DNA of 58,431 nucleotides, the filler included, from Jimgerdemannia flammicorona (Eukaryota): the NCBI GenBank assembly GCA_003990765.1. It is 3 parts of 3 records of this genome, joined end to end, with 100 filler letters (N's around TTAATTAATTAA, not from the genome) between each part and the next. Parts side by side here need not be neighbours in the genome. Positions count along the whole stretch, not along the records: positions 39,026 to 58,431 come from RBNJ01001947.1; 2 more parts are not named here. The stretch is one strand, 5' to 3'. The notes under the pieces are model-generated. The model worked only from the letters and a program-made list of their open reading frames with translations. It made no database searches and was not told the origin of the DNA. This document shows positions 7,423 to 49,546 of this stretch, in pieces. Every line of letters starts with the position of its first letter. Positions within the stretch are counted from its first letter, which is position 1. Made by a program: the position numbers and the translations under genes.

Positions 7423-9346
7423 TATAAGTACATAACCTCCAAGCCACTGAAATCACATGTGACCTCTGAACAAATCTGGAAACCATCTGCTTGATCATGA
7501 AGCTGAGTCAAACCAAAGTCACAGTATACAAAGCTGAGTCAATATGAAGTTACAGAACACAAGATTCACATAAATGGAATCTTACCAATTAGGACCAAAT
7601 ATATATATACTGAGCACTGAGATGCATCAAAACAGAGAACCAAAATAAATAACAACCACAACTCCCAACATACAAACATAACCACTGAGATCTACAACTG
7701 TATCTGTACTGATATTTGGAATGCTATTGTCAACCGAGCCATACCCCCTCTACCCCTCATGAATATCCATAGTCTAGCACCTCTTTACTTTATAAAAGCC
7801 TGATAGAATACTCTGAACATGCTTAACAAGGTCCACCAAATTGGACAAATCTCAAGCTACTATCAGATCAGCCGCCTCCTGGAAGATTTAGTTGAACATC
7901 ATCATGATACAGATATTACTCAGATGTCTCAACATCAGAAGCTCATCACCTGCAAACATCGAGAACTCTTCTATAAGTATAGCACTGTTATTCCCCACCT
8001 CCAAGTTACTATAGCTGAAATGGTTGCTATCCTGTCCTATTGCCAAATCGATGACATGATACAAGAACTCAACCACAAGTATCTTGAGTATATTAAAACC
8101 ACAGACAGAACCTTCCCACACCCCAATGATCATATCCTACAAATGCCCCAAGTTGGATATACCATGAAGGACATCTATAATATAATCCACTTCGATGAAG
8201 ATAAAGCAGAAGACAATGATCCCTCCAACACCAACATGACCCCAAGCCAAGGATCCCTGCCAACACTAATTATACCATCAATCTTGTCAATGAACTTATA
8301 ATAGTTCATAACCACATACAAGACTTATTGGGACAATGACTACTAGTATGAATACCAACCTGCATTCACCCCCAATTACTTTAACTAGAATGAAGAGACC
8401 GGAGAATACAACCTATACCTCCAGACAACCCTTGAGATTGAACCAACCTATCCACCACTCAAATATGAGCAATATGAACTATAGCCACCAGCTTACTATA
8501 ACCCCATAACTAATAGTACTGTAACCTATAGAAGACGAAGTTCCAATGTATTATTATCTCAGTGAACAAGGAGAAGTAATCCATGAACCACTCTTCCTAG
8601 ATGACTACTTCATCAGAGATGATACAATCAATGGTGATATCATCGAGAACTATCCAGACAGTGTCTAAACCTATAAATAGCCTAGCAGTCATAGTATAGT
8701 TAGATTAGCCTTGTACGACATGACTGTGAACTGACTCAGCAGTCAGACGATCTCTTAATATGTCAGATCACACTTGTACTATATGATTGCATTCTGACTC
8801 AGCAAAGCACTTAAGTGCTATATTCATATCTAGCATAGTCCAGATAGCCCCCCACTAGTATAAATACCCTCTCCCCCAGACCTCAGAATCTCAGACTTGA
8901 ACACTTGAACAATCCAAACACAACTCCTGAGCACTTCTCTACAAATATCTCTTCACATAACTACTCCTAATATAGCAATATCATGAATAGCAAATAAACC
9001 TATTTAATAACCCACAAAACTACTCTTAAGTAAATCTACTCCCCATTAGGTCCCACTCCTAACCCCATTACGAAATCTCCTAATTGGGTATTGTCTGCAG
9101 CAATATGCCAATTCAACTAAGCTGATCTTAGTTTTTTGAACTTCCTGAAATATGAAAAATCCTGAACATCCAGAACTAGTCTGAAAAAGGACTTTGGTTG
9201 AGACATCAACTCAATCTTGAAATCAATAAGCATAGAGGATGTACTCCATATGAAATTGATCTTGACCATAAGAAAACAGTCTTCCAGAATATCCAGAACT
9301 TCCCCAGAACTACATAATGGTTACCCTGAAAAACAACCCTCTTACA
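7423..9346 (+). repeat. 5' LTR of copy A; contains degenerate LTR-ORF 7678-8668
   Basis: Starts TATAAG (mutated TGTAAG) and ends CTTACA, followed by ACTTGGTAG (PBS-like TGG). TATAAA at 8859-8864, AATAAA at ~8993. Aligns with 17089-19031. Confidence 0.9.
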
Positions 9347-11780: not shown

Positions 11781-14309
11781 AACAAGGCCCCAGCCCAACC
11801 TATCATGAGCAAAGAAGAACAATTCTACAAGAAGATCGAAGACAGATATATACCAAGTAGCTGATGCCCTCATGGCATTGGGATATACTCTTCCTGAATG
11901 ATTGATGATTGCTTCTCTTGTGTCAATGAACTGGCTCAAAGAAGAACCAACAGAAGGAAAAGTCCTATAACTGAAATCACCACCATTGGATCAGACAAAC
12001 TACTTATACTTAAAGCTTTTATCAACCGAGCACCTGTCAAGATTATGATAGACAGTGGTGCCTTAGGCAACTTCATCAATGAAGAGATAGCTAACAGACT
12101 CAAGGTCTTCACCTCTCCAGTACAGCAAACTCAAGCAGTTGCTACAGCTGATGAAACCTCACATGTTATTAGCAAAGAAGTCTGCAATCTACCCTTCTGA
12201 ATTGGCGACTACCGAGTATATGTTACCCTCCAAATCATACCACTTCCTGACAATGAAATCATCCTTGGGACTCCATGGTTAAAATAAGAGAACCCCATGA
12301 TTGATTGGATAAACCATTCTCTGACCATCAAGAAAGGATGCCACAACTTCAAACTACAAGACAAAAAGGACCCACTTAATTCTAGTGACTCTGGACCAAA
12401 GATCACCTACATTAATAAGCTATAACTCAAGAAATTGGCCAAGAAATGCCCTCTCTTTGCCATCACCATCCATCCATCCAAAGGAAAACCTGAGAACTCT
12501 GAAGAAGACTTTTTCAAAGTTGATAGCCATGTCAGACCACTACTCCAGAAATTCCGAGACATATTCCCAAAGAAACTCCCAAAAGGCCTACCTCCTAAAT
12601 GAGCAGTAGACCATACCATTAAGACTATCCCAGTACCAAACCAGCCTTCAAGTCAATCTACCACATGTCTCCAAGAGAAATCGATGCACTCAAGAAAGAA
12701 ATTGATGAACTCCTAGAACAAGGATTCATTAGACCCAGTGTATCACCTTATAGTGCACCAGTCCTATTTATTGTCAAGAAAGGAGGAGACCTGTGAATAT
12801 GTATTGACTACCATGATCTCAATGAACAGACCATCAAGAACTATTGCCCACTACTAAGAATCGATGAAATATTTGATAGACTTACCAACCCACAATTCAT
12901 GAGCTCCTTTGACCTGCGAAATGGTTACTGACAAATTGCCATGAAAGAAGAAGACATCTACAAGACAGCCTTCTGAACTTGCTATGGACATTTCGAGTTC
13001 CTGGTTATGCCCTTTGGCTTAACTAATACTTCTGTAACCTTCCAGACCCTAATGAATACTATCCTGCACTCATACCTGGACAAATTCATGGTTGTCTACA
13101 TTGATGACATCCTAGTCTTCAGCAAAACCCTGGAGGAATATCTTGAACACCTTGAACTAGTACTACTGAAACTCCGAGAAAACCAACTCTTTGCAAAACT
13201 CAGCAAGTGCGAATTTCTCTTGAAAGAAATTCAATTCCTTGGACACATTGTCACTCCAAATAGAATCAAAGTAGACCCCAGCAAAATCTCTCAAATCAAA
13301 GATTGGCCCAGATCCAAGAAGCTGAAAGACCTCCAGTCATTCCTGAGATTAGCAAACTATTACAGGCAATTTGTTGCCAACTTTGCTAAAATTGCTACTG
13401 CTCTCACCCAAATGACCAAGCATAGCAAGAAACAAGAACAACTCTGGACCATGAAATAAGAGAAAGACTTCAACAATCTTATAATCTGGGGACCTGAGCA
13501 AGACACCACCTTTCAAGCACTAAAGGATGCCTTGATAACCACTCCAGTACTTCAAGCAGCAAATCCTGCCCTACCATATGAAGTCACTACTAATGCCTCT
13601 GACCTAGCCCTTGGAGCAGTACTCATGCAAGAAGGACACCCTGTGGCCTGTCACTCCCACAAGTTCAATGATGCTGAAATTAACTATATAATCTATGAGA
13701 AGGAAATGCTAGCCATCATAGACACTCTGATCAAATGGTGACCATATCTAGAAGGAGTATACTTTACTATATTGACTGACCACAAGTTATTAGTCAACAT
13801 CAAGACACAGGCTACCCTTTCTCGAAAGCAAGTCAGATGGATGAAAGTCCTCACCAACTTTGACTATGAAATCCAGTATCACCCTGGTAAGGAAAATATT
13901 GTTACCAATGCAATCTCCAGACCACCCATTGAAGAAGTTATCCAAACTCTCACCTTGATTACCAATACTATCATGGAGCAAATTATTGCAGTATATACTG
14001 ATGATAAGGAAGCTCAAGCACTCTGAGAAATCCTGAATAGGATGATGTTGACAAATGTACACAGTATCACCAATATCAACTGAAGGACAATGCTATCTAC
14101 TACAAGAACAGACTGTATGTTCCAAACAACCAAGACTTCTGAAGGACTATCCTATTTGAATGTCATGATGCCCCTATAGCTGGATATTTAGGATTCGATA
14201 AATGTTATGAAGTTATCTCCTGAAACTTCTATTGGCCCCATATGGCAGATCAGCTCAAAACCTACATCACTTCCTGTGATGCCTACCAATGAAATAAGTC
14301 CTCAATACT

Positions 14310-19415: not shown

Positions 19416-19515
19416 NNNNNNNNNNNNNNNNNNNNNNNNNNNNNNNNNNNNNNNNNNNNTTAATTAATTAANNNNNNNNNNNNNNNNNNNNNNNNNNNNN
19501 NNNNNNNNNNNNNNN
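19416..19515. other. Artificial assembly spacer (N-run with TTAATTAATTAA six-frame stop linker)
   Basis: 100 nt with a central TTAATTAATTAA; identical design at 38926-39025. Confidence 0.95.
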
Positions 19516-38925: not shown

Positions 38926-39025
38926 NNNNNNNNNNNNNNNNNNNNNNNNNNNNNNNNNNNNNNNNNNNNTTAATTAATTAANNNNNNNNNNNNNNNNNNN
39001 NNNNNNNNNNNNNNNNNNNNNNNNN
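38926..39025. other. Artificial assembly spacer
   Basis: 100-nt N-run with a central TTAATTAATTAA. Confidence 0.95.
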
Positions 39026-40899
39026 ATGTTCAGGATTTTCTGTATTTCAGGAAGTTCAAGAAACTAAGACCAGCTTAGTTGAATTGGCGTATCGCTGCAG
39101 ACAATACCCAATTAGGAAATTTCGTGATGGGGTTAGGAGTAGGACCTAACAGAGAGCGGATTTACTTAAGAGTAGTTTGTGGGTTATGGAATAGGTTTAT
39201 TTGCTATTCATGATATTGCTATACTAGGAGTAGTTGTGTGAAGGAATATTGTGGAGAAGTATTCAGGAATGTTCTTGTGTGTTTGAGTCTGAGATTCTGA
39301 GGTCTGGGGGAGGGGGTATTTATACTAGTGAGGGGCTATCTGGACTATGCTAAATATGGATGTAGCACTAAGTGCCTTGCTGAGTCGGAATGCAGTCACG
39401 TAGTACAAGTGTGATCTGATATGTCAAGAGATCGTCTGACTGCTGAGTCAGTTCACAGTCACGTCGTACAAGGCTAATCTAACTATACTATGACTGCTAG
39501 GCTATTTATAGTTTTAGGCGCTGTCTGGGTAGTCTTCGATGACATCACCATCGATTGCATCATCTCTGATAAAGTAGTCATCTAGGAAGAGTGGTTCACG
39601 GATTACTTCTCCTTGTTGGCTGAGGTAGTAATATATTGGGACTTCATCTCCATCCCACAGGATAGCATCGTCTGTTTCATATACTGGATAAGGTGTTGGT
39701 GGGCGAAGGATAGGTGTACTGTCTTCACTTTCATCGGATTCACTATCTGCGTACCTTCTATAGGTTACAGCACTATGAGTCGCGGGGTTGTAGTAAGCTG
39801 GCGGCTGTGATTCAAGTTGCTTATACTCGGGTGGTGGAGTGGTTGGTTCAATCTCGAGGGTTGTCTGAAGGTACAGGTTGTGTTCTCCGGTCTCTTCATT
39901 GTAATTGAAGTAATCAGGGGTAAATGCAGGTTGGTATTTGTGCCAGTGGTCATTGTCCCAATAAGTCTCGTATGTTGTTATGAACTGTTGTAAGTTCATC
40001 GGCAAGGTTGGCGGAGTGATCAGGGTTGGTAGAGATCCTTGACTAGAGGTCATGTCAGCATCAGAGGGATCATTGTCTTCTGCTTCATCTTCATCGAAGT
40101 GGATTATATCATAGACGTCCTTCATAGCATATCCGACTTGAGGCATTTGCAGGATGTGGTCATCAGGGTGCGGGAAGGTTCTGTCTGTGGTTTCGACATA
40201 CTCGAGGTATTTGTGGTTGATTTCTTGTATCATGTCGTCGATTTGGCCGTAAGACAGGGTAGCAACCATTTCACTGGTAGTAACTCGGAGGCGGGGAATA
40301 AAGGTGTTGTACTCATAGAAGAGTTCTCGATGTTTGCGGGCGATGAGCTTCTGGTGTTGAGACATCTGGGTCATATCTGTATCGTGGTGGTGTTCGATCA
40401 TGTCTTCCAAGAGGTGGCCGATCTGGTAGTAGCTTGAGATTTGTCTGATTCGGTGGGCCTCACTAAGCATGTTCAGGGCATTCCATCGGGCTTCCACGAA
40501 GTAGAGGGGGGCCAGGCTATAGATATTCATGAGGGGCAGAGGGGGTGTAGCTCAGTTGACAATGGCATTACAAATGTCAGCGCGGATGCAGTTGTAGATC
40601 TCAGTAGTCATATTTGTATGTTTGGAAGTTGTGGTTGTTGTTTGTTTTGGTTCTCTGATTCGACGCATCTTGGTGCTCAGTATATATGCATTTGGTCCTG
40701 ATTGGTAATATTCCATTTGTGTAGATCTTGTGTTCTGTGACTTCGTATTGACTCAGCTTTGTGCACTGTGACTTCGGTTTGACTCAGCTTCATGATCAAG
40801 CAGGTGATTTCTAGATTTATTCGGAGGTCGTGTGTGATTTCAGTAGCTTGTTCAGAGGGTGACATGTAATTTCGGTGGCTTGGGGGTTGTGCGCTTACA
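39026..40899 (-). mobile_element. Least-mutated LTR of the chromovirus family (copy C; solo or 5' LTR, cut by the gap)
   Basis: Minus strand begins TGTAAGCGCACAACCCCC at 40899 with no PPT upstream; collinear with the other LTRs; retains many CpGs. Confidence 0.92.
39514..40611 (-). CDS. LTR-encoded protein of unknown function: 338 aa open (39514-40530), 365 aa from ATG 40611 once one CGA>TGA is repaired
   Basis: Long ORF wholly inside the LTR. Both copy A LTRs have CGA at the single upstream stop, and the ATG (MTTEIYN..) is present at 17376, 20723, 29063 and 40611. Confidence 0.8.
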
Positions 40900-44628: not shown

Positions 44629-44692
44629 CTTCTCTCATCCTTTCGTTTCTTTCTCTCATCCTTTCGTTTCTTTCTCTCATCCTTTCTTTTCT
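44629..44692 (+). repeat. ~21-bp pyrimidine tandem repeat x3 just upstream of the GH9-like gene
   Basis: TTCTCTCATCCTTTCGTTTCT repeated three times, the last imperfect. Confidence 0.8.
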
Positions 44693-44724
44693 TCCACTCT
44701 CCCCCCTGCCGAACACTGAGCAGG

Positions 44725-47700
44725 ATGCTGTTCAAGCCGCGCCAAACCCTCGCGGCCTTGTCGCTGCTTATGCTGGCAAATTTAGCAACCGCCGACCTGC
44801 CAGATGCTTTCCAGAAGCTTGCAGAACGACCTTTGATGGAACTCTCGGAATCTTTTGAAGAGGACTGCACTACTACGCCTATACCCACTCCGATTAATGG
44901 CCTGGACTCCGCCACGTGCGTATGTACGTACAAGAACCCCGCCATCCCAATAGGCGGGACTTATGTCACTGTCACAGTGGTATTGGTGGACAGCAACGGC
45001 AACCCAACTGCCACTATTACGGGTACGGGGATGGCGGTCAACCCCATCGCAACCGGCGTGAACGTCGGCGGCACGGTGATGGTCACCTGGACGGACAGCA
45101 ACGGCAAACCAACTGGTACTGGTGTGGGCATTGTAGGCACCGGCATTGCAGCCACCGGCGTCGCGGGCACCGGCGTCGCGGGCACCGGCGTCGCAGCCAC
45201 CGGCGTCGCAGGCACTGGCGTCGCAGCCACCGGCGTCGCGGGCACCGGCGTCGCAGCCACCGGCGTCGCAGGCACTGGCGTCGCAGCCACCGGCGTCGCG
45301 GGCACTGGCGTTGCAGGCGTCGCGGGCACTGGCGTTGCAGGCGTCGCGGGCACTGGCGTTGCAGGCGTCGCAACCACTGCTGATTCAAATGCGGATACAG
45401 AAGAGACAGGCATCGCAGCTACCGACACAGGCGTCGAAGCCACCGGCACAGGCGTTGAAGCCACCGGCACAGGCGTCGTAGCCACTGGCACAGGTGTCGC
45501 AGCCACCGACACAGGTGTCGTAGCCACCGACACAGGTGTCGTAGCCACCGACACAGGTGTCGTAGCCACCGGCACAGGTGTCGTAGCCACTGCAACTGAC
45601 ACCACCGCCGCCACTGGCACCGCCACCGCCACCGCCACCGCTCCGGCCACCGCCTCAGGATTGAACTCCACCGCCAGGGCCACCTCCACCGCTACGGCCA
45701 CCGCTCCAGGATTGAACTCCACCACCACCGCCACCAACTTTACCTTCACCGCACCTAACTTCGCTGCTATCCTTCCGACGGACTATGGGCTTGTAACCGT
45801 GCCCACTCGTGTCAGCAACACAAGCTCGGAGTATATGAGTCTTCTTAACCACTCAATGTGGTTTTACGCGGCTCAGCAATCTGGTCATCTGGTCAATAAG
45901 CGTGTCTTTTGGTATGCAGCATTTGTGTTCGATTACTGATTTTTAAGATATCAGAGTTTGAAAGGTGATTGACTAGGTAACTAATGTTGATACGTATATT
46001 GTGCAGGCGAAATGATTCTTGCCTAACCGATGGCGCCGATTACAACATTGACCTTAGCGGGGTACGTTGGCATTAGCGACTCGACAAAGCGACATGCGTC
46101 ATTGTTTTTTCTTGCAATCCATCCATCGAACAATTGAATTACCTCTGAACATTGTTACCTTTTTTTTCTTCGTTATCCAGGGCTACTACGCTACGGGCAC
46201 TTACATGAAATACACTTTCACACTTTCATACTCGCTGAACATGCTATCTTGGGGAGCTGTCGAATACCTTGATGGTAACTGCAAGCATTAATTGGATTTC
46301 ACATGTACAATTGTGCAAAATCTGTAGTTTTAAGTCTTTCTGACTCTTTTTTTTTTTTTTTTTTTTTGACTTCCTATAAGGATATATATTGGCCGGTCAG
46401 GTCGACTATCTCCGGGAAACGGTGAAATGGGTAAGATACAGCTTGCTGAAACGTTGCGTAGACAAAGAGCGATTAATCTGAAATACTAACCCAATGCATC
46501 GGCAATCATTGACGTAGGGTACGGACTGGATAATCAAAGCGCATCCGAACCCGGAGACACTCTATGTGCAGGTAGGTTTTGGGACGATTGTCCTAAATTT
46601 CCATTGCAAACAATGCCGACAACTGATTCATGTTATTCTTGTCATTACCTAATGTAGGTCGGCGACTATACCATCGACCATAACTACTGGGGTATATTTC
46701 TGTTCCTTTTTGAACTCTTACCCATACACACAATATCGCATGTCATGCCAACCTCCTAACATCATCGTTTCCCTTTTCATAGGCCCAGACTACAGCGTCC
46801 CTCTCCCGCGTCCCTCCTTCGCCATCAACTCCACAAGACCGGGTACCGACGTCGCTGCCGAAGCTGCAGCAGCTATGGCATCCGCATCCGTCCTGTTCTC
46901 GACTCTGGGCAAGAACCAGACAAACGCGAACGACACCGCCTATGCGGCTGTTTTGCTGAAACATGCTGAAGAGCTGTGGAATTTCGCGGTGAACGCCAAG
47001 CCTTACACTCTATATCAAACTTCGGATACGGCCTTATTGGGGTCATTTTTGAGCACAGGTTTGTAGCTTCACTGTTTAGCTCTCTCCTATATGTGCTCTT
47101 GATTTTGCCTCCCCTCTCCCACGAGTTAATCGCTCGCTCTTACCTATCGTACCTTGACAATACTTTATATTACCAGGTTACGTCGACGAGCTCTTCTGGT
47201 CCTCCGTGCACCTGTATCGCGCCACCAAGAACACAACGTACCTGGACGCGGCGCGAACATTCTGCTCCAGTTTCAATCTTACATCGTCGAAGCGCGCCGT
47301 CAGCTGGGACTGGAAGGTCGGGGCCGCATACGTGCTGATAGCTGAGGTTACCAGTGGAGATGTCGTGACGGGCTTGCCTGCTACTAGCGATGCAGCCTAT
47401 TGGCAGGGTTTGGCTGAGCAGTACTTGGATTCGGTAACCAACATTACAGCTGACGGAGCATACTTGACTAAAGGCGGCTTGTTGTGGTTTAACGGTACTA
47501 GGTGAGTCGGCAGGAACGGTCTGTCTCTTCATTTTATTATCCACATTGACTATACTGTTCATTAACACTTACCTTGCCGTGCATTTTCCGCAGCGAATCC
47601 AACTCTATCAGCACGGCTACGACCCAATCCATGCTCCTTTTTATATATTCATCCTCTGTGTTGCGTCGTATCTCCGGCTCCTCGCAACAAGGTCCGGAGG

Positions 47701-49546
47701 CGATCCGAGCGGCACGTTACGAGACATTCGCGCAAGCGCAGCTCGATTACGTGTTCGGCAGGAATCCGATGGATACATTGTACATTATTGGCCAGCAGCG
47801 GAACTCGCCGCAGAACCCGCACCATGCCGGAGCCAGTGGCGGCTTCAATGCCAGTAATTTGGAAATTCCCAAGAATACGGCGTATGTGTTATACGGAGGT
47901 GAGTAGCTCAAAATATTGCCTAGAAGAATGCCCTGGCAGTGATCGATAATGACCGGGCATCTCTGATTCTGTTAGCATAATGGTCATATCTTAACTGGTT
48001 ACTTCGAATACTTCATTGAATCATAGCTGTTGTTGCCGGTCCGGACCGCTCGGATAGCTACACCGATGACCGCGCTGCTATATCCGAATCCGAAGTCGCG
48101 CTCATTTTCAACGCCCCCTTGCAATCGATATTTGCTCGCCAAGCCCTCTACAGCCCCTCAAATCCTTTCTACATCAACTCCGCGAACTCCGAATCGTCCT
48201 CGAGCACCAGTGGCCTCCCTACCTGGGGCTTAGCTCTCATCATAGTCATCGCGCTGCTTATCTTGGGCCTGCTTCTTCTTTGCTGCTGCCTGAATCGGGC
48301 CATCATCGCCGCGTTTTTCGATAGGGACGATGAGGATCAGGAGGGCATTGCGAATGAGGCTGCTGCGAATATGAATAACGCTTCGACTACGACTGTAGGT
48401 TCGACGACGGGTGTACCCGTACCTGGTGTTGGGATGCATAGAGAAATGACAGAGATCGGATTGCCAGAGGAGTTTGTAGTAGAGGAGATGGTCTTGGAGG
48501 ATGGCGCTGCCCCAGAACAGACTCAAATCGTAATGGATGAGGCCGTAGTTGGAGTGAGGACTGAGACCGAGATGATCATGATCGAGACGGATGACACCTC
48601 AGTGACAGCGCTTGGGAACCAACCTTCGTCCTCGTTCAGATCGGGCTCCGCCTTTGCAGGTGGCGCTGCTGCTGCTGCTGCTGCTGGCGCCGTCGCTGCT
48701 GCTGGAGCTGCTCAAACCCGTTCGGTTTACTCATCGCGATCCGGTACTGCCCTTGTCGGTGGCGCTGCGGCTGGAGCTGCTGCGGGTGCCGCTGCCTCTG
48801 AGTCACGTTCCGTTGGTAGTGCCACTGAAACACGTTCTACCATATCCCGAACAAGTACTGCCGTTGGTGGAGCCCTTGTGGGTGGCGCCCTTGTAGGTAG
48901 TGCGGGTGAGACACGTTCTACCATAACCCGGACAAGTACTAGCGACCTTGTCGGTGGTGCGGCTGAAACACGTACTACAATAACTCGGACAAGTACTTCC
49001 GTCGGTAGCGACCTTGTCGGTGGTGCGGCTGAAACACGTTCAACAATAACTCGGACAAGTACTTCCGTCGGTAGCGACCTTGTCGATGGTGCGGCTGAAA
49101 CACGTTCAACAATAACTCGGACAAGTACTTCCGTCGGTAGCGACCTTGTCGATGGTGCGGCTGAAACACGTTCTACCATAACCCGGACAAGTACCTCCGT
49201 CGGTGGCGCCCTAGTTGGTGGTGAGCCACGGTCCACCATATCCCGGACAAGTACCGCCGTTGGTAGCGTCCTTGGGGGTGGTGCGACTGAGACACGCTCT
49301 CGAACAAGTACCGGCTTTGGGTCCGCCCTTACCGGTAGTGCCGGTGAAACACGTTCGACCATATCGCGAACTAGTACCCTTATTGACGGTGGTGAGACTG
49401 ATACTGTGACTACTACTACTACCACGACCAAAACCATTACCAAATCTGACTCACCGCCCGTGTCCCAGACATCGGAGACAGTATTGGTGAAATCAAACAC
49501 GTTCACGAATACGAGGTCAGAGAGCTTCATCAACAGGCAATCATAG
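44725..49546 (+). CDS. 1299-aa type I membrane protein with GH9 (endoglucanase-fold) domain; exons 44725-45911, 46007-46061, 46181-46274, 46381-46430, 46518-46571, 46658-46691, 46783-47058, 47177-47501, 47594-47898, 48027-49546
   Basis: Ten exons with GT-AG introns total 3900 nt in frame. Signal peptide; T/G/V/A repeats; GH9 motifs FYAAQQSG, IDLSGGYY, KWGTDWIIKAHP, LYVQVGD..DHNYWG, PGTDVAAEAAAAMA, DELFW, QLDYVFGRNP, PQNPHH, GAVVAGPD, EVA; TM helix WGLALIIVIALLILGLLLLCCC; S/T/R-rich tail. Confidence 0.9.

Follow-up and report, generated by a model that had tools for sequence, protein, structure and literature searches.

A probably non-hydrolytic, membrane-anchored GH9 protein with a long repeat tail in Jimgerdemannia flammicorona

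What can a protein of a cellulase family be kept for once its catalytic base has gone? The question is raised by a gene in a 58,431-nt stretch of DNA from Jimgerdemannia flammicorona (GCA_003990765.1), a root-symbiotic fungus of the Endogonales; in this stretch, hereafter the window, in which the first conserved motif of glycoside hydrolase family 9 (GH9) reads GGYYATGT instead of the canonical GGYYDAGD. A first-pass annotation made from the sequence alone had called the product a receptor-like pseudo-enzyme, and a non-hydrolytic glucan- or cellulose-binding surface sensor or adhesin. Our results support the pseudo-enzyme status well, through further active-site losses, splicing, expression and signs of past purifying selection. 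Tentatively, and with slightly less than even confidence, we propose that the dead GH9 domain could be kept as the membrane-proximal domain of a mucin-like tether or wall-state sensor directed at the fungus's own wall. The residues concerned, located by alignment, are as follows.

46190..46201, + strand: A418-T419-G420-T421 (codons GCT ACG GGC ACT) replacing D-A-G-D, which holds D55 and D58 of T. fusca Cel9A (TfCel9A)
47046..47048, + strand: F580 replacing the Tyr206 equivalent, which is Tyr in 121 of 121 homologues
47311..47313, + strand: W629 at the Asp262 position, common to the orthologue fragment P0122 and the broken paralogue C24534
48092..48109, + strand: E816, the catalytic acid, kept (48092-48094), and I820-F821 replacing D428-Y429 (48104-48109)

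The GH9 domain was aligned with 121 proteins (the best 120 of 1722 matches and those of an exon-7 search; one is a plant protein), and reference residues carry TfCel9A numbers transferred via P0036 (E 2e-93). The D55 column holds Asp in all 113 homologues that cover it; in the D58 column 101 of 113 have Asp and 12 have Asn (P0038, P0075, P0080 and others, mostly second copies in Mucorales). Both Asp are missing in none of the 111 homologues that cover both columns, and both are missing here, with Ala and Thr in their place. The last motif, canonically EVAxDYNA, reads EVALIFNA: Ile stands in the Asp428 column (Asp in 114 of 118 homologues) and Phe in the Tyr429 column (Tyr in 117 of 118). The Tyr420 column, with Trp or Tyr in 109 homologues, also has Ile. 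Both motifs, as first read, were confirmed at the codon level. Tyr206 and Tyr429 have their roles at the catalytic water and the -1 subsite. A literature search on the roles of these two residues found no mutagenesis paper. The residues at H125, W128, W260, D261, H376 and E424 are kept, H488, W491, H768 and E816 of this protein among them. In the list of cleft residues taken from part of PMC4579020, which places Tyr206 among the sugar-binding residues, H125, W128, D261 and H376 are kept, and F205, Y206, W209, W256, D262, W313, R317, R378 and Y420 are changed or absent, several of them family-wide.

The D55 and D58 pair is the catalytic base in inverting GH9 enzymes, according to parts of PMC4221708 and PMC7064699. 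Since A418 and T421 replace it, the known chemistry of the family indicates that normal inverting hydrolysis has very probably been lost; the acid Glu is present as E816. Continued enzyme activity, in which E816 works with some other base or the linkage attacked is a different one, would fit the retention of E816, H488, W491 and H768, and the fungal family does tolerate motif changes, as seen in the D58N homologues and in two paralogues that read E-x-x-N. However, neither Ala nor Thr provides a carboxylate, the hydroxyls of both Tyr are gone, none of the homologues does without both Asp, and a related contig from a root metatranscriptome (run X5) has Asp in place of E816 in the one contig concerned. 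We regard continued catalysis as very improbable.

Whether the altered motif is really made can be judged from the gene model and from RNA.

44725..49546, + strand: ten-exon GH9 gene for a predicted type I membrane pseudo-enzyme of 1299 aa (gene model; RNA joints within 45700-48700)
46062..46180, + strand: intron 2, 119 nt, phase 0, directly 5' of the altered motif and in the same position in the intact paralogue C610 (model, RNA, paralogue alignment)

The exons run 44725-45911, 46007-46061, 46181-46274, 46381-46430, 46518-46571, 46658-46691, 46783-47058, 47177-47501, 47594-47898 and 48027-49546. All nine introns (86-128 nt) are GT..AG and the 1299-aa frame has no internal stop, so the ten-exon frame is intact, as first described; the GH9 coding part is also CpG-rich (observed/expected 1.16 vs 0.47 in the window). 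RNA was compared for four of eight runs (X1, X2, X3 and X5) over 45700-48700, a span that begins 975 nt into exon 1 and stops 846 nt short of the 3' end of the gene. In RNA-derived contigs of X1 and X2, which are single-organism libraries possibly made from the same material as the genome, introns 1, 2 and 4-9 are absent at their modelled GT..AG ends, with 0-1 differing letters per piece. The removal of intron 3, which contains a poly-T skipped in the comparison, follows from length arithmetic only, as the 138 nt between exons 3 and 7 in the contig are exactly exons 4, 5 and 6. In X3, a soil metatranscriptome from a separate study, joints 8 and 9 are seen. Because the contigs of both X1 and X2 join 46061 to 46181, the junction proposed from the sequence, the GGYYATGT motif is truly transcribed and spliced, and is no assembly or annotation slip. 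Expression of the gene is likewise established by these runs. Splicing that restores D-x-x-D was looked for and rejected: intron 2 has three AG acceptors, the frame is open into exon 3 only from 46180, which is the acceptor used in the RNA, and the other two run into stops. An assembly error at the motif was rejected as well, exon 3 being without any differing letter in the RNA contigs. Three copies of a 21-bp pyrimidine-rich unit lie just 5' of the start codon (window 44630-44693).

The genome offers a background against which the losses can be read. A search with PF00759 gave 16 matches on eight contigs, and among the eight GH9 loci, this gene included, D-A-G-D and the acid Glu are both present only in C610 and C2394 (proteins P0123 and P0036), which are intact and have a C-terminal transmembrane (TM) span. 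C3798 and C152 have E-x-x-N instead of D-x-x-D and keep the acid Glu; these two are almost intronless, have a Cys-rich end and form a long separate branch in a quick tree, with a broken third copy on C229. C1128 has both base Asp and a Val in the catalytic-acid column. The copies on C229 and C24534 are broken, the latter being a close paralogue (66% amino acid identity over 360 codons) with several frameshifts and stops whose 5' part is not on the contig. The nearest intact relative is C610, with 253 of 467 residues identical (54%) and seven of nine intron positions in common. This sister (C610:18019-21037, 671 aa) has D-A-G-D and an Ala in the His376 column beside an extra intron, and its NCBI model, P0123, is without the first exons. 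In the quick tree of 39 rows, drawn without C1128, C229 and C24534, the gene falls inside the fungal TM-GH9 group beside C610 and Calcarisporiella P0124, with a Shimodaira-Hasegawa-like approximate likelihood ratio (SH-aLRT) of 90, below the starred level. These comparisons indicate that the gene is a duplicate of an ordinary fungal TM-GH9, with C610 as its nearest intact paralogue. Searches of the genome, which give lower bounds, turned up no other close copy, either of exons 1-6 or of exon 10.

The same inventory bears on the possibility of a non-catalytic helper role, as chaperone, scaffold or competitor. Its target would be either the synthesis of beta-glucan by the fungus itself or the active GH9 paralogues, and its site the membrane or the secretory pathway. 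The genome does contain the two intact TM-GH9s, and the C1128 GH9, with its Val in the acid column, stands back to back with a GT2 cellulose-synthase-like open reading frame (ORF; PF00535, PF13641, weak PF03552). Yet this GT2 gene is unlinked to the gene studied here, which lies on another contig, C1947, among transposon remains, and a helper role leaves the long repeats of the protein unexplained. We consider it quite improbable.

The remainder of the protein is laid out as follows.

44725..44793, + strand: probable signal peptide, aa 1-23 (sequence pattern; best 9-residue hydropathy 2.63)
44794..45144, + strand: aa 24-140, Thr/Val/Gly-rich, with two imperfect repeats and of no known family (no Pfam match, no usable atlas match)
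45145..45759, + strand: aa 141-345, Thr/Ala/Gly/Val repeats (15-, 24-, 21- and 51-bp arrays), 29% Ser+Thr, distal to GH9
45820..48150, + strand: GH9 domain, about aa 366-835, across exons 1-10 (PF00759 on exons 3, 7, 8, 9 and 10; alignment with 121 homologues)
48224..48292, + strand: single TM helix, aa 860-882, ending in Cys879-881 (19-residue hydropathy up to 3.44; helix in the structure model at a predicted local distance difference test score, pLDDT, of 66-86)
48293..49546, + strand: 417-aa tail with an acidic part, a Gly/Ala-rich part, a repeat array and a Thr-rich end (model, composition)
48827..49411, + strand: nine tail repeats of 19-27 aa (66-bp array) with an Arg/Ser/Thr core (repeat analysis; synonymous excess between copies)

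Taken singly, exons 7, 8 and 9 exceed the PF00759 cut-off (57, 46 and 65 bits) and exons 3 and 10 fall below it. Only one set of 19-residue windows exceeds a hydropathy of 1.6, and it lies C-terminal to GH9, with no N-terminal anchor of the KORRIGAN type. Fourteen N-glycosylation sequons precede the TM helix and one follows it. The signal peptide (by pattern) and the TM helix ending in three Cys were therefore found as first annotated, and palmitoylation of Cys879-881 is possible. The Thr-rich repeats, which are mucin-like by composition, had been taken for a stalk; that assignment fails because they are N-terminal, hence distal to GH9, and the last GH9 motif lies just some 37 residues from the TM helix. 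The membrane anchor, too, loses its value as a sign of a receptor. Of the 114 homologues long enough to show it, 102 have a C-terminal hydrophobic span after GH9, so the type I topology appears to be inherited from ordinary fungal GH9s. By its layout (with the signal peptide by pattern) and by its descent within the fungal clade, the protein belongs with the fungal membrane-anchored GH9s of the Phanerochaete Cel9A type, widespread in Mucoromycota and Basidiomycota, with which it has in common GH9, a short linker and one C-terminal TM span at 44-54% identity. Unlike them, it has lost both base Asp and has a front region of about 365 aa before GH9 (median 55 and maximum 131 in 95 homologues) as well as a 417-aa tail (median 26.5 and maximum 290 in 102 homologues). 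The membrane-anchored layout itself is in print for basidiomycete GH9s, in part of PMC3032700; what is new here is the dead site together with the tail.

The length first given for that tail, about 415 aa, was close to the 417 aa of the model. None of 2000 base shuffles of the tail keeps the frame open. The indels among the repeats are in frame, and the nine copies show a synonymous excess, with 25.5 synonymous and 29.5 non-synonymous events (ratio 0.48, p=0.004). The tail has repeated Arg-x-x-Thr/Ser motifs. A search for an intracellular output domain of the RsgI6 kind gave no Pfam, atlas, sequence or fold match; in particular, Foldseek returned no PDB match at E<=0.001, and residues 1-220 of exon 10 matched none of 8000 candidate proteins of 181-578 aa. 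The single-sequence AlphaFold model of the tail (mean pLDDT 42.7), in which only the TM helix is confident and the repeats appear as low-confidence strands, supports no claim. Three Diversisporales TM-GH9s (P0048, P0049 and P0147) have long acidic repeat tails as well, of 263 and 290 aa in the two that were measured. Because these are unrelated in sequence to the present tail, tail expansion has occurred more than once in the family.

According to the explanation we favor, a lineage-specific duplicate of an ordinary fungal membrane-anchored GH9 lost the part of its active site that activates water while the residues of the fold stayed, and it gained the distal Thr-rich repeat region and the long repeat tail. 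The GH9 domain would then have been kept as the non-hydrolytic, membrane-proximal domain of a mucin-like protein that ties the plasma membrane of the fungus to its own wall. We infer secretion, type I topology and O-glycosylation of the repeats. The kept +1/+2 residues H488, W491, H768 and E816 might grip wall glucan or a partner protein, and a palmitoylated, phosphorylatable tail might scaffold or report the state of the wall. The first-pass annotation had left plant wall and own wall side by side. Since the GH9 domain adjoins the membrane, it would lie beneath the fungal wall, which makes contact with the fungus's own wall the more plausible and plant-wall contact the less. The idea of a non-hydrolytic cellulose-binding sensor divides in a similar way: the lost active-site residues speak for the absence of hydrolysis, whereas a cellulose-binding sensor finds no support in our tests, most of the cellulose-stacking residues being absent throughout the family, Y420 being lost as well and the tail matching nothing.

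Each of the closest known systems differs from this protein in some respects. TfCel9A (E4; PDB 1js4/4tf4) and the other active GH9s belong to the same family and agree at the positions H125, W128, W260, D261, H376 and E424, but D55, D58, F205, Y206, D262, Y420, D428 and Y429 are changed here and the CBM3 of TfCel9A is absent. Plant KORRIGAN, a class A GH9, is membrane-bound, has a role in the plant's own wall and is catalytically active, with a type II anchor. It had been used as the point of reference. The contrast between that type II N-terminal anchor and the C-terminal span found here is valid, but KORRIGAN is not the nearest relative of this gene, and the fungal GH9s with a C-terminal membrane span are the right reference. 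In Msb2, too, a mucin region is followed by a folded domain and then the TM. Signalling mucins and wall sensors (Msb2, Hkr1; Wsc, Mid) are likewise made up of a signal peptide, an extracellular region rich in Ser/Thr, one TM and an intracellular tail, as set out in part of PMC9148135. The protein shows the Msb2/Hkr1 layout by sequence; the folded domain and short tail of that family were not found, no other Pfam family being present on exons 1 and 10. The folded domain is GH9 instead, no sequence relation is shown, and the tail is long and repetitive rather than short. The RsgI6-GH10 biosensor of C. thermocellum is also a membrane protein, whose outer glycoside hydrolase has very low activity and binds polysaccharide (from part of PMC4711584), but it is bacterial, of family GH10 and oppositely oriented, with a known anti-sigma output domain, and no output domain was found here. 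Judged on these points, the likeness to signalling mucins and to RsgI6 is functional at most, and membership in both fails.

The own-wall reading should nevertheless be interpreted with some caution, as a number of observations weigh against it. Of the columns conserved in the family, 117 of 138 are kept here vs 122 of 138 in C610, and the losses are concentrated in the active site (five of nine conserved active-site columns vs 16 of 129 others; Fisher p=0.004), but the nine columns were chosen, from recall and from papers, after the losses had been seen. Neither the fungal family nor this protein has residues that correspond to W209, W256, R317, Y318 and R378 of TfCel9A, and glucan may for that reason be bound weakly or not at all. 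Pfam, atlas, protein and own-genome searches gave no homologue for either the tail or the N-terminal region. Against the broken paralogue C24534, over 360 codons, the non-synonymous rate (dN) is 0.22 and the synonymous rate (dS) 1.5, giving a dN/dS of 0.14 (bootstrap 0.08-0.20), which attests to old constraint only, since dS is near saturation; C610 is saturated at synonymous sites and no ratio was taken against it. Amino acid changes polarised by C610 number 21 on the branch of this gene and 40 on that of C24534. The sequences thus indicate purifying selection in the past. Differences in related contigs weigh against this. At 57 places the X5 contigs differ from the gene; 17 are without letters and seven in a gap-rich stretch were dropped, and the 33 that could be used comprise nine synonymous and 24 non-synonymous differences, a neutral ratio (expected synonymous share 0.237, p=0.68). 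One X5 contig (depth 5.8, 97% alike) has a 2-nt deletion at 48314 that would lead to a stop at aa 892. These contigs may reflect a dispensable tail or a broken gene in a relative. The constraint expected of a functional pseudo-enzyme is seen in the past and in the synonymous excess of the tail repeats, and not in X5.

A recent pseudogene was rejected as the leading explanation in view of the conserved columns, the dN/dS of 0.14 and the tail repeats. It survives in the form of a duplicate in slow decay, whose fold was long kept, whose constraint is now relaxed, with the catalytic residues the first to be lost, and whose repeats are by-products of slippage. The neutral X5 ratio, the E816D and tail-frameshift contigs, and a sister copy, C24534, that is already broken all agree with decay, as do the missing tail homologue and the rarity of orthologues. 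An exon-8 search of protein representatives gave 52 matches, only one of them above 60%: the orthologue fragment P0122, a 78% identical exon-8 ORF in a Logan contig. Exon 7, searched against longer proteins, found four ordinary GH9s among 711 candidates and no full-length orthologue, and exon 8 had one weak and probably unrelated locus among 329 stretches of metagenome contigs; the gene seems narrowly distributed. These searches yielded no orthologue that includes exon 3, and one X5 contig that starts 5' of the GH9 domain extends, with 30 loose letters, to just short of the altered motif. Against decay stand the 3.9-kb frame open over ten exons, splicing in runs of three studies, conserved columns kept almost as well as in C610, the old constraint, and the synonymous excess and in-frame indels of the tail repeats; moreover, the X5 evidence consists of short single contigs of shallow depth (2.6-7.6), which a broken copy may have produced. 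Slow decay is in our judgement unlikely, though by no means negligible.

The own-wall tether or sensor also has to be set against true receptors. One version, a glycan receptor of Endogonales, supposes that the dead GH9 cleft, reshaped by its new Trp, could hold plant or own-wall beta-1,4-glucan uncut while a palmitoylated, repeat-phosphorylated tail signals; we think this unlikely, to about the degree that slow decay is. A narrower one is a host-sensing receptor: while a root is being colonised, plant cellulose or cello-oligosaccharides would bind in the dead cleft and the tail would signal. We consider this improbable. The kept +1/+2 residues and the new Trp in the cleft, the repeated motifs of the long tail, the transcription of relatives in root and soil metatranscriptomes and the precedent of a glycoside hydrolase turned sensor, RsgI6-GH10, would suit it. 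But GH9 lies some 37 residues from the membrane and so presumably beneath the fungal wall, the minus-subsite aromatics are missing family-wide, the tail holds no signalling domain or known motif in Pfam, atlas, structure and fold searches, and the strongest holders of the transcript, X1 and X2, are libraries of a single organism rather than of roots.

GH9 is the most abundant cellulase family of Endogonales in genome comparisons (part of PMC12574304), and GH9 genes are treated as cellulase counts in passages of PMC12574304, PMC8778642, PMC6540522, PMC7928374 and PMC4771724. If all GH9 loci are counted in this way, plant-wall degradation is overstated, because only two of the eight loci in this genome have D-A-G-D and the acid Glu. 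Fungal GH9s have been judged 'probably unrelated to cellulose degradation' in part of PMC3032700. Our literature search, which covered few subscription journals, found no report of a catalytically dead fungal GH9. With a dead and an intact sister in one genome, the ligands of fungal GH9s can readily be tested, and for a root symbiont the question becomes whether wall tether or sensor is a possible role for a disarmed cellulase. A receptor function, if true, would make the protein the first receptor built on GH9, and a candidate sensor of wall or host in a mycorrhizal lineage that diverged early.

The window joins three contigs at N gaps (19416-19515 and 38926-39025), and sequence to the left of 39025 is not necessarily a neighbour of the gene. 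At 12977-13459, within a long stretch of low GC, lies a reverse-transcriptase fragment (PF00078, E 6e-20) of a degenerate retroelement. Two related ORFs, at 7807-8301 on the plus strand and 39514-40551 on the minus strand, are 77% alike over 164 aa, have no Pfam match and probably belong to a repeat-element family.

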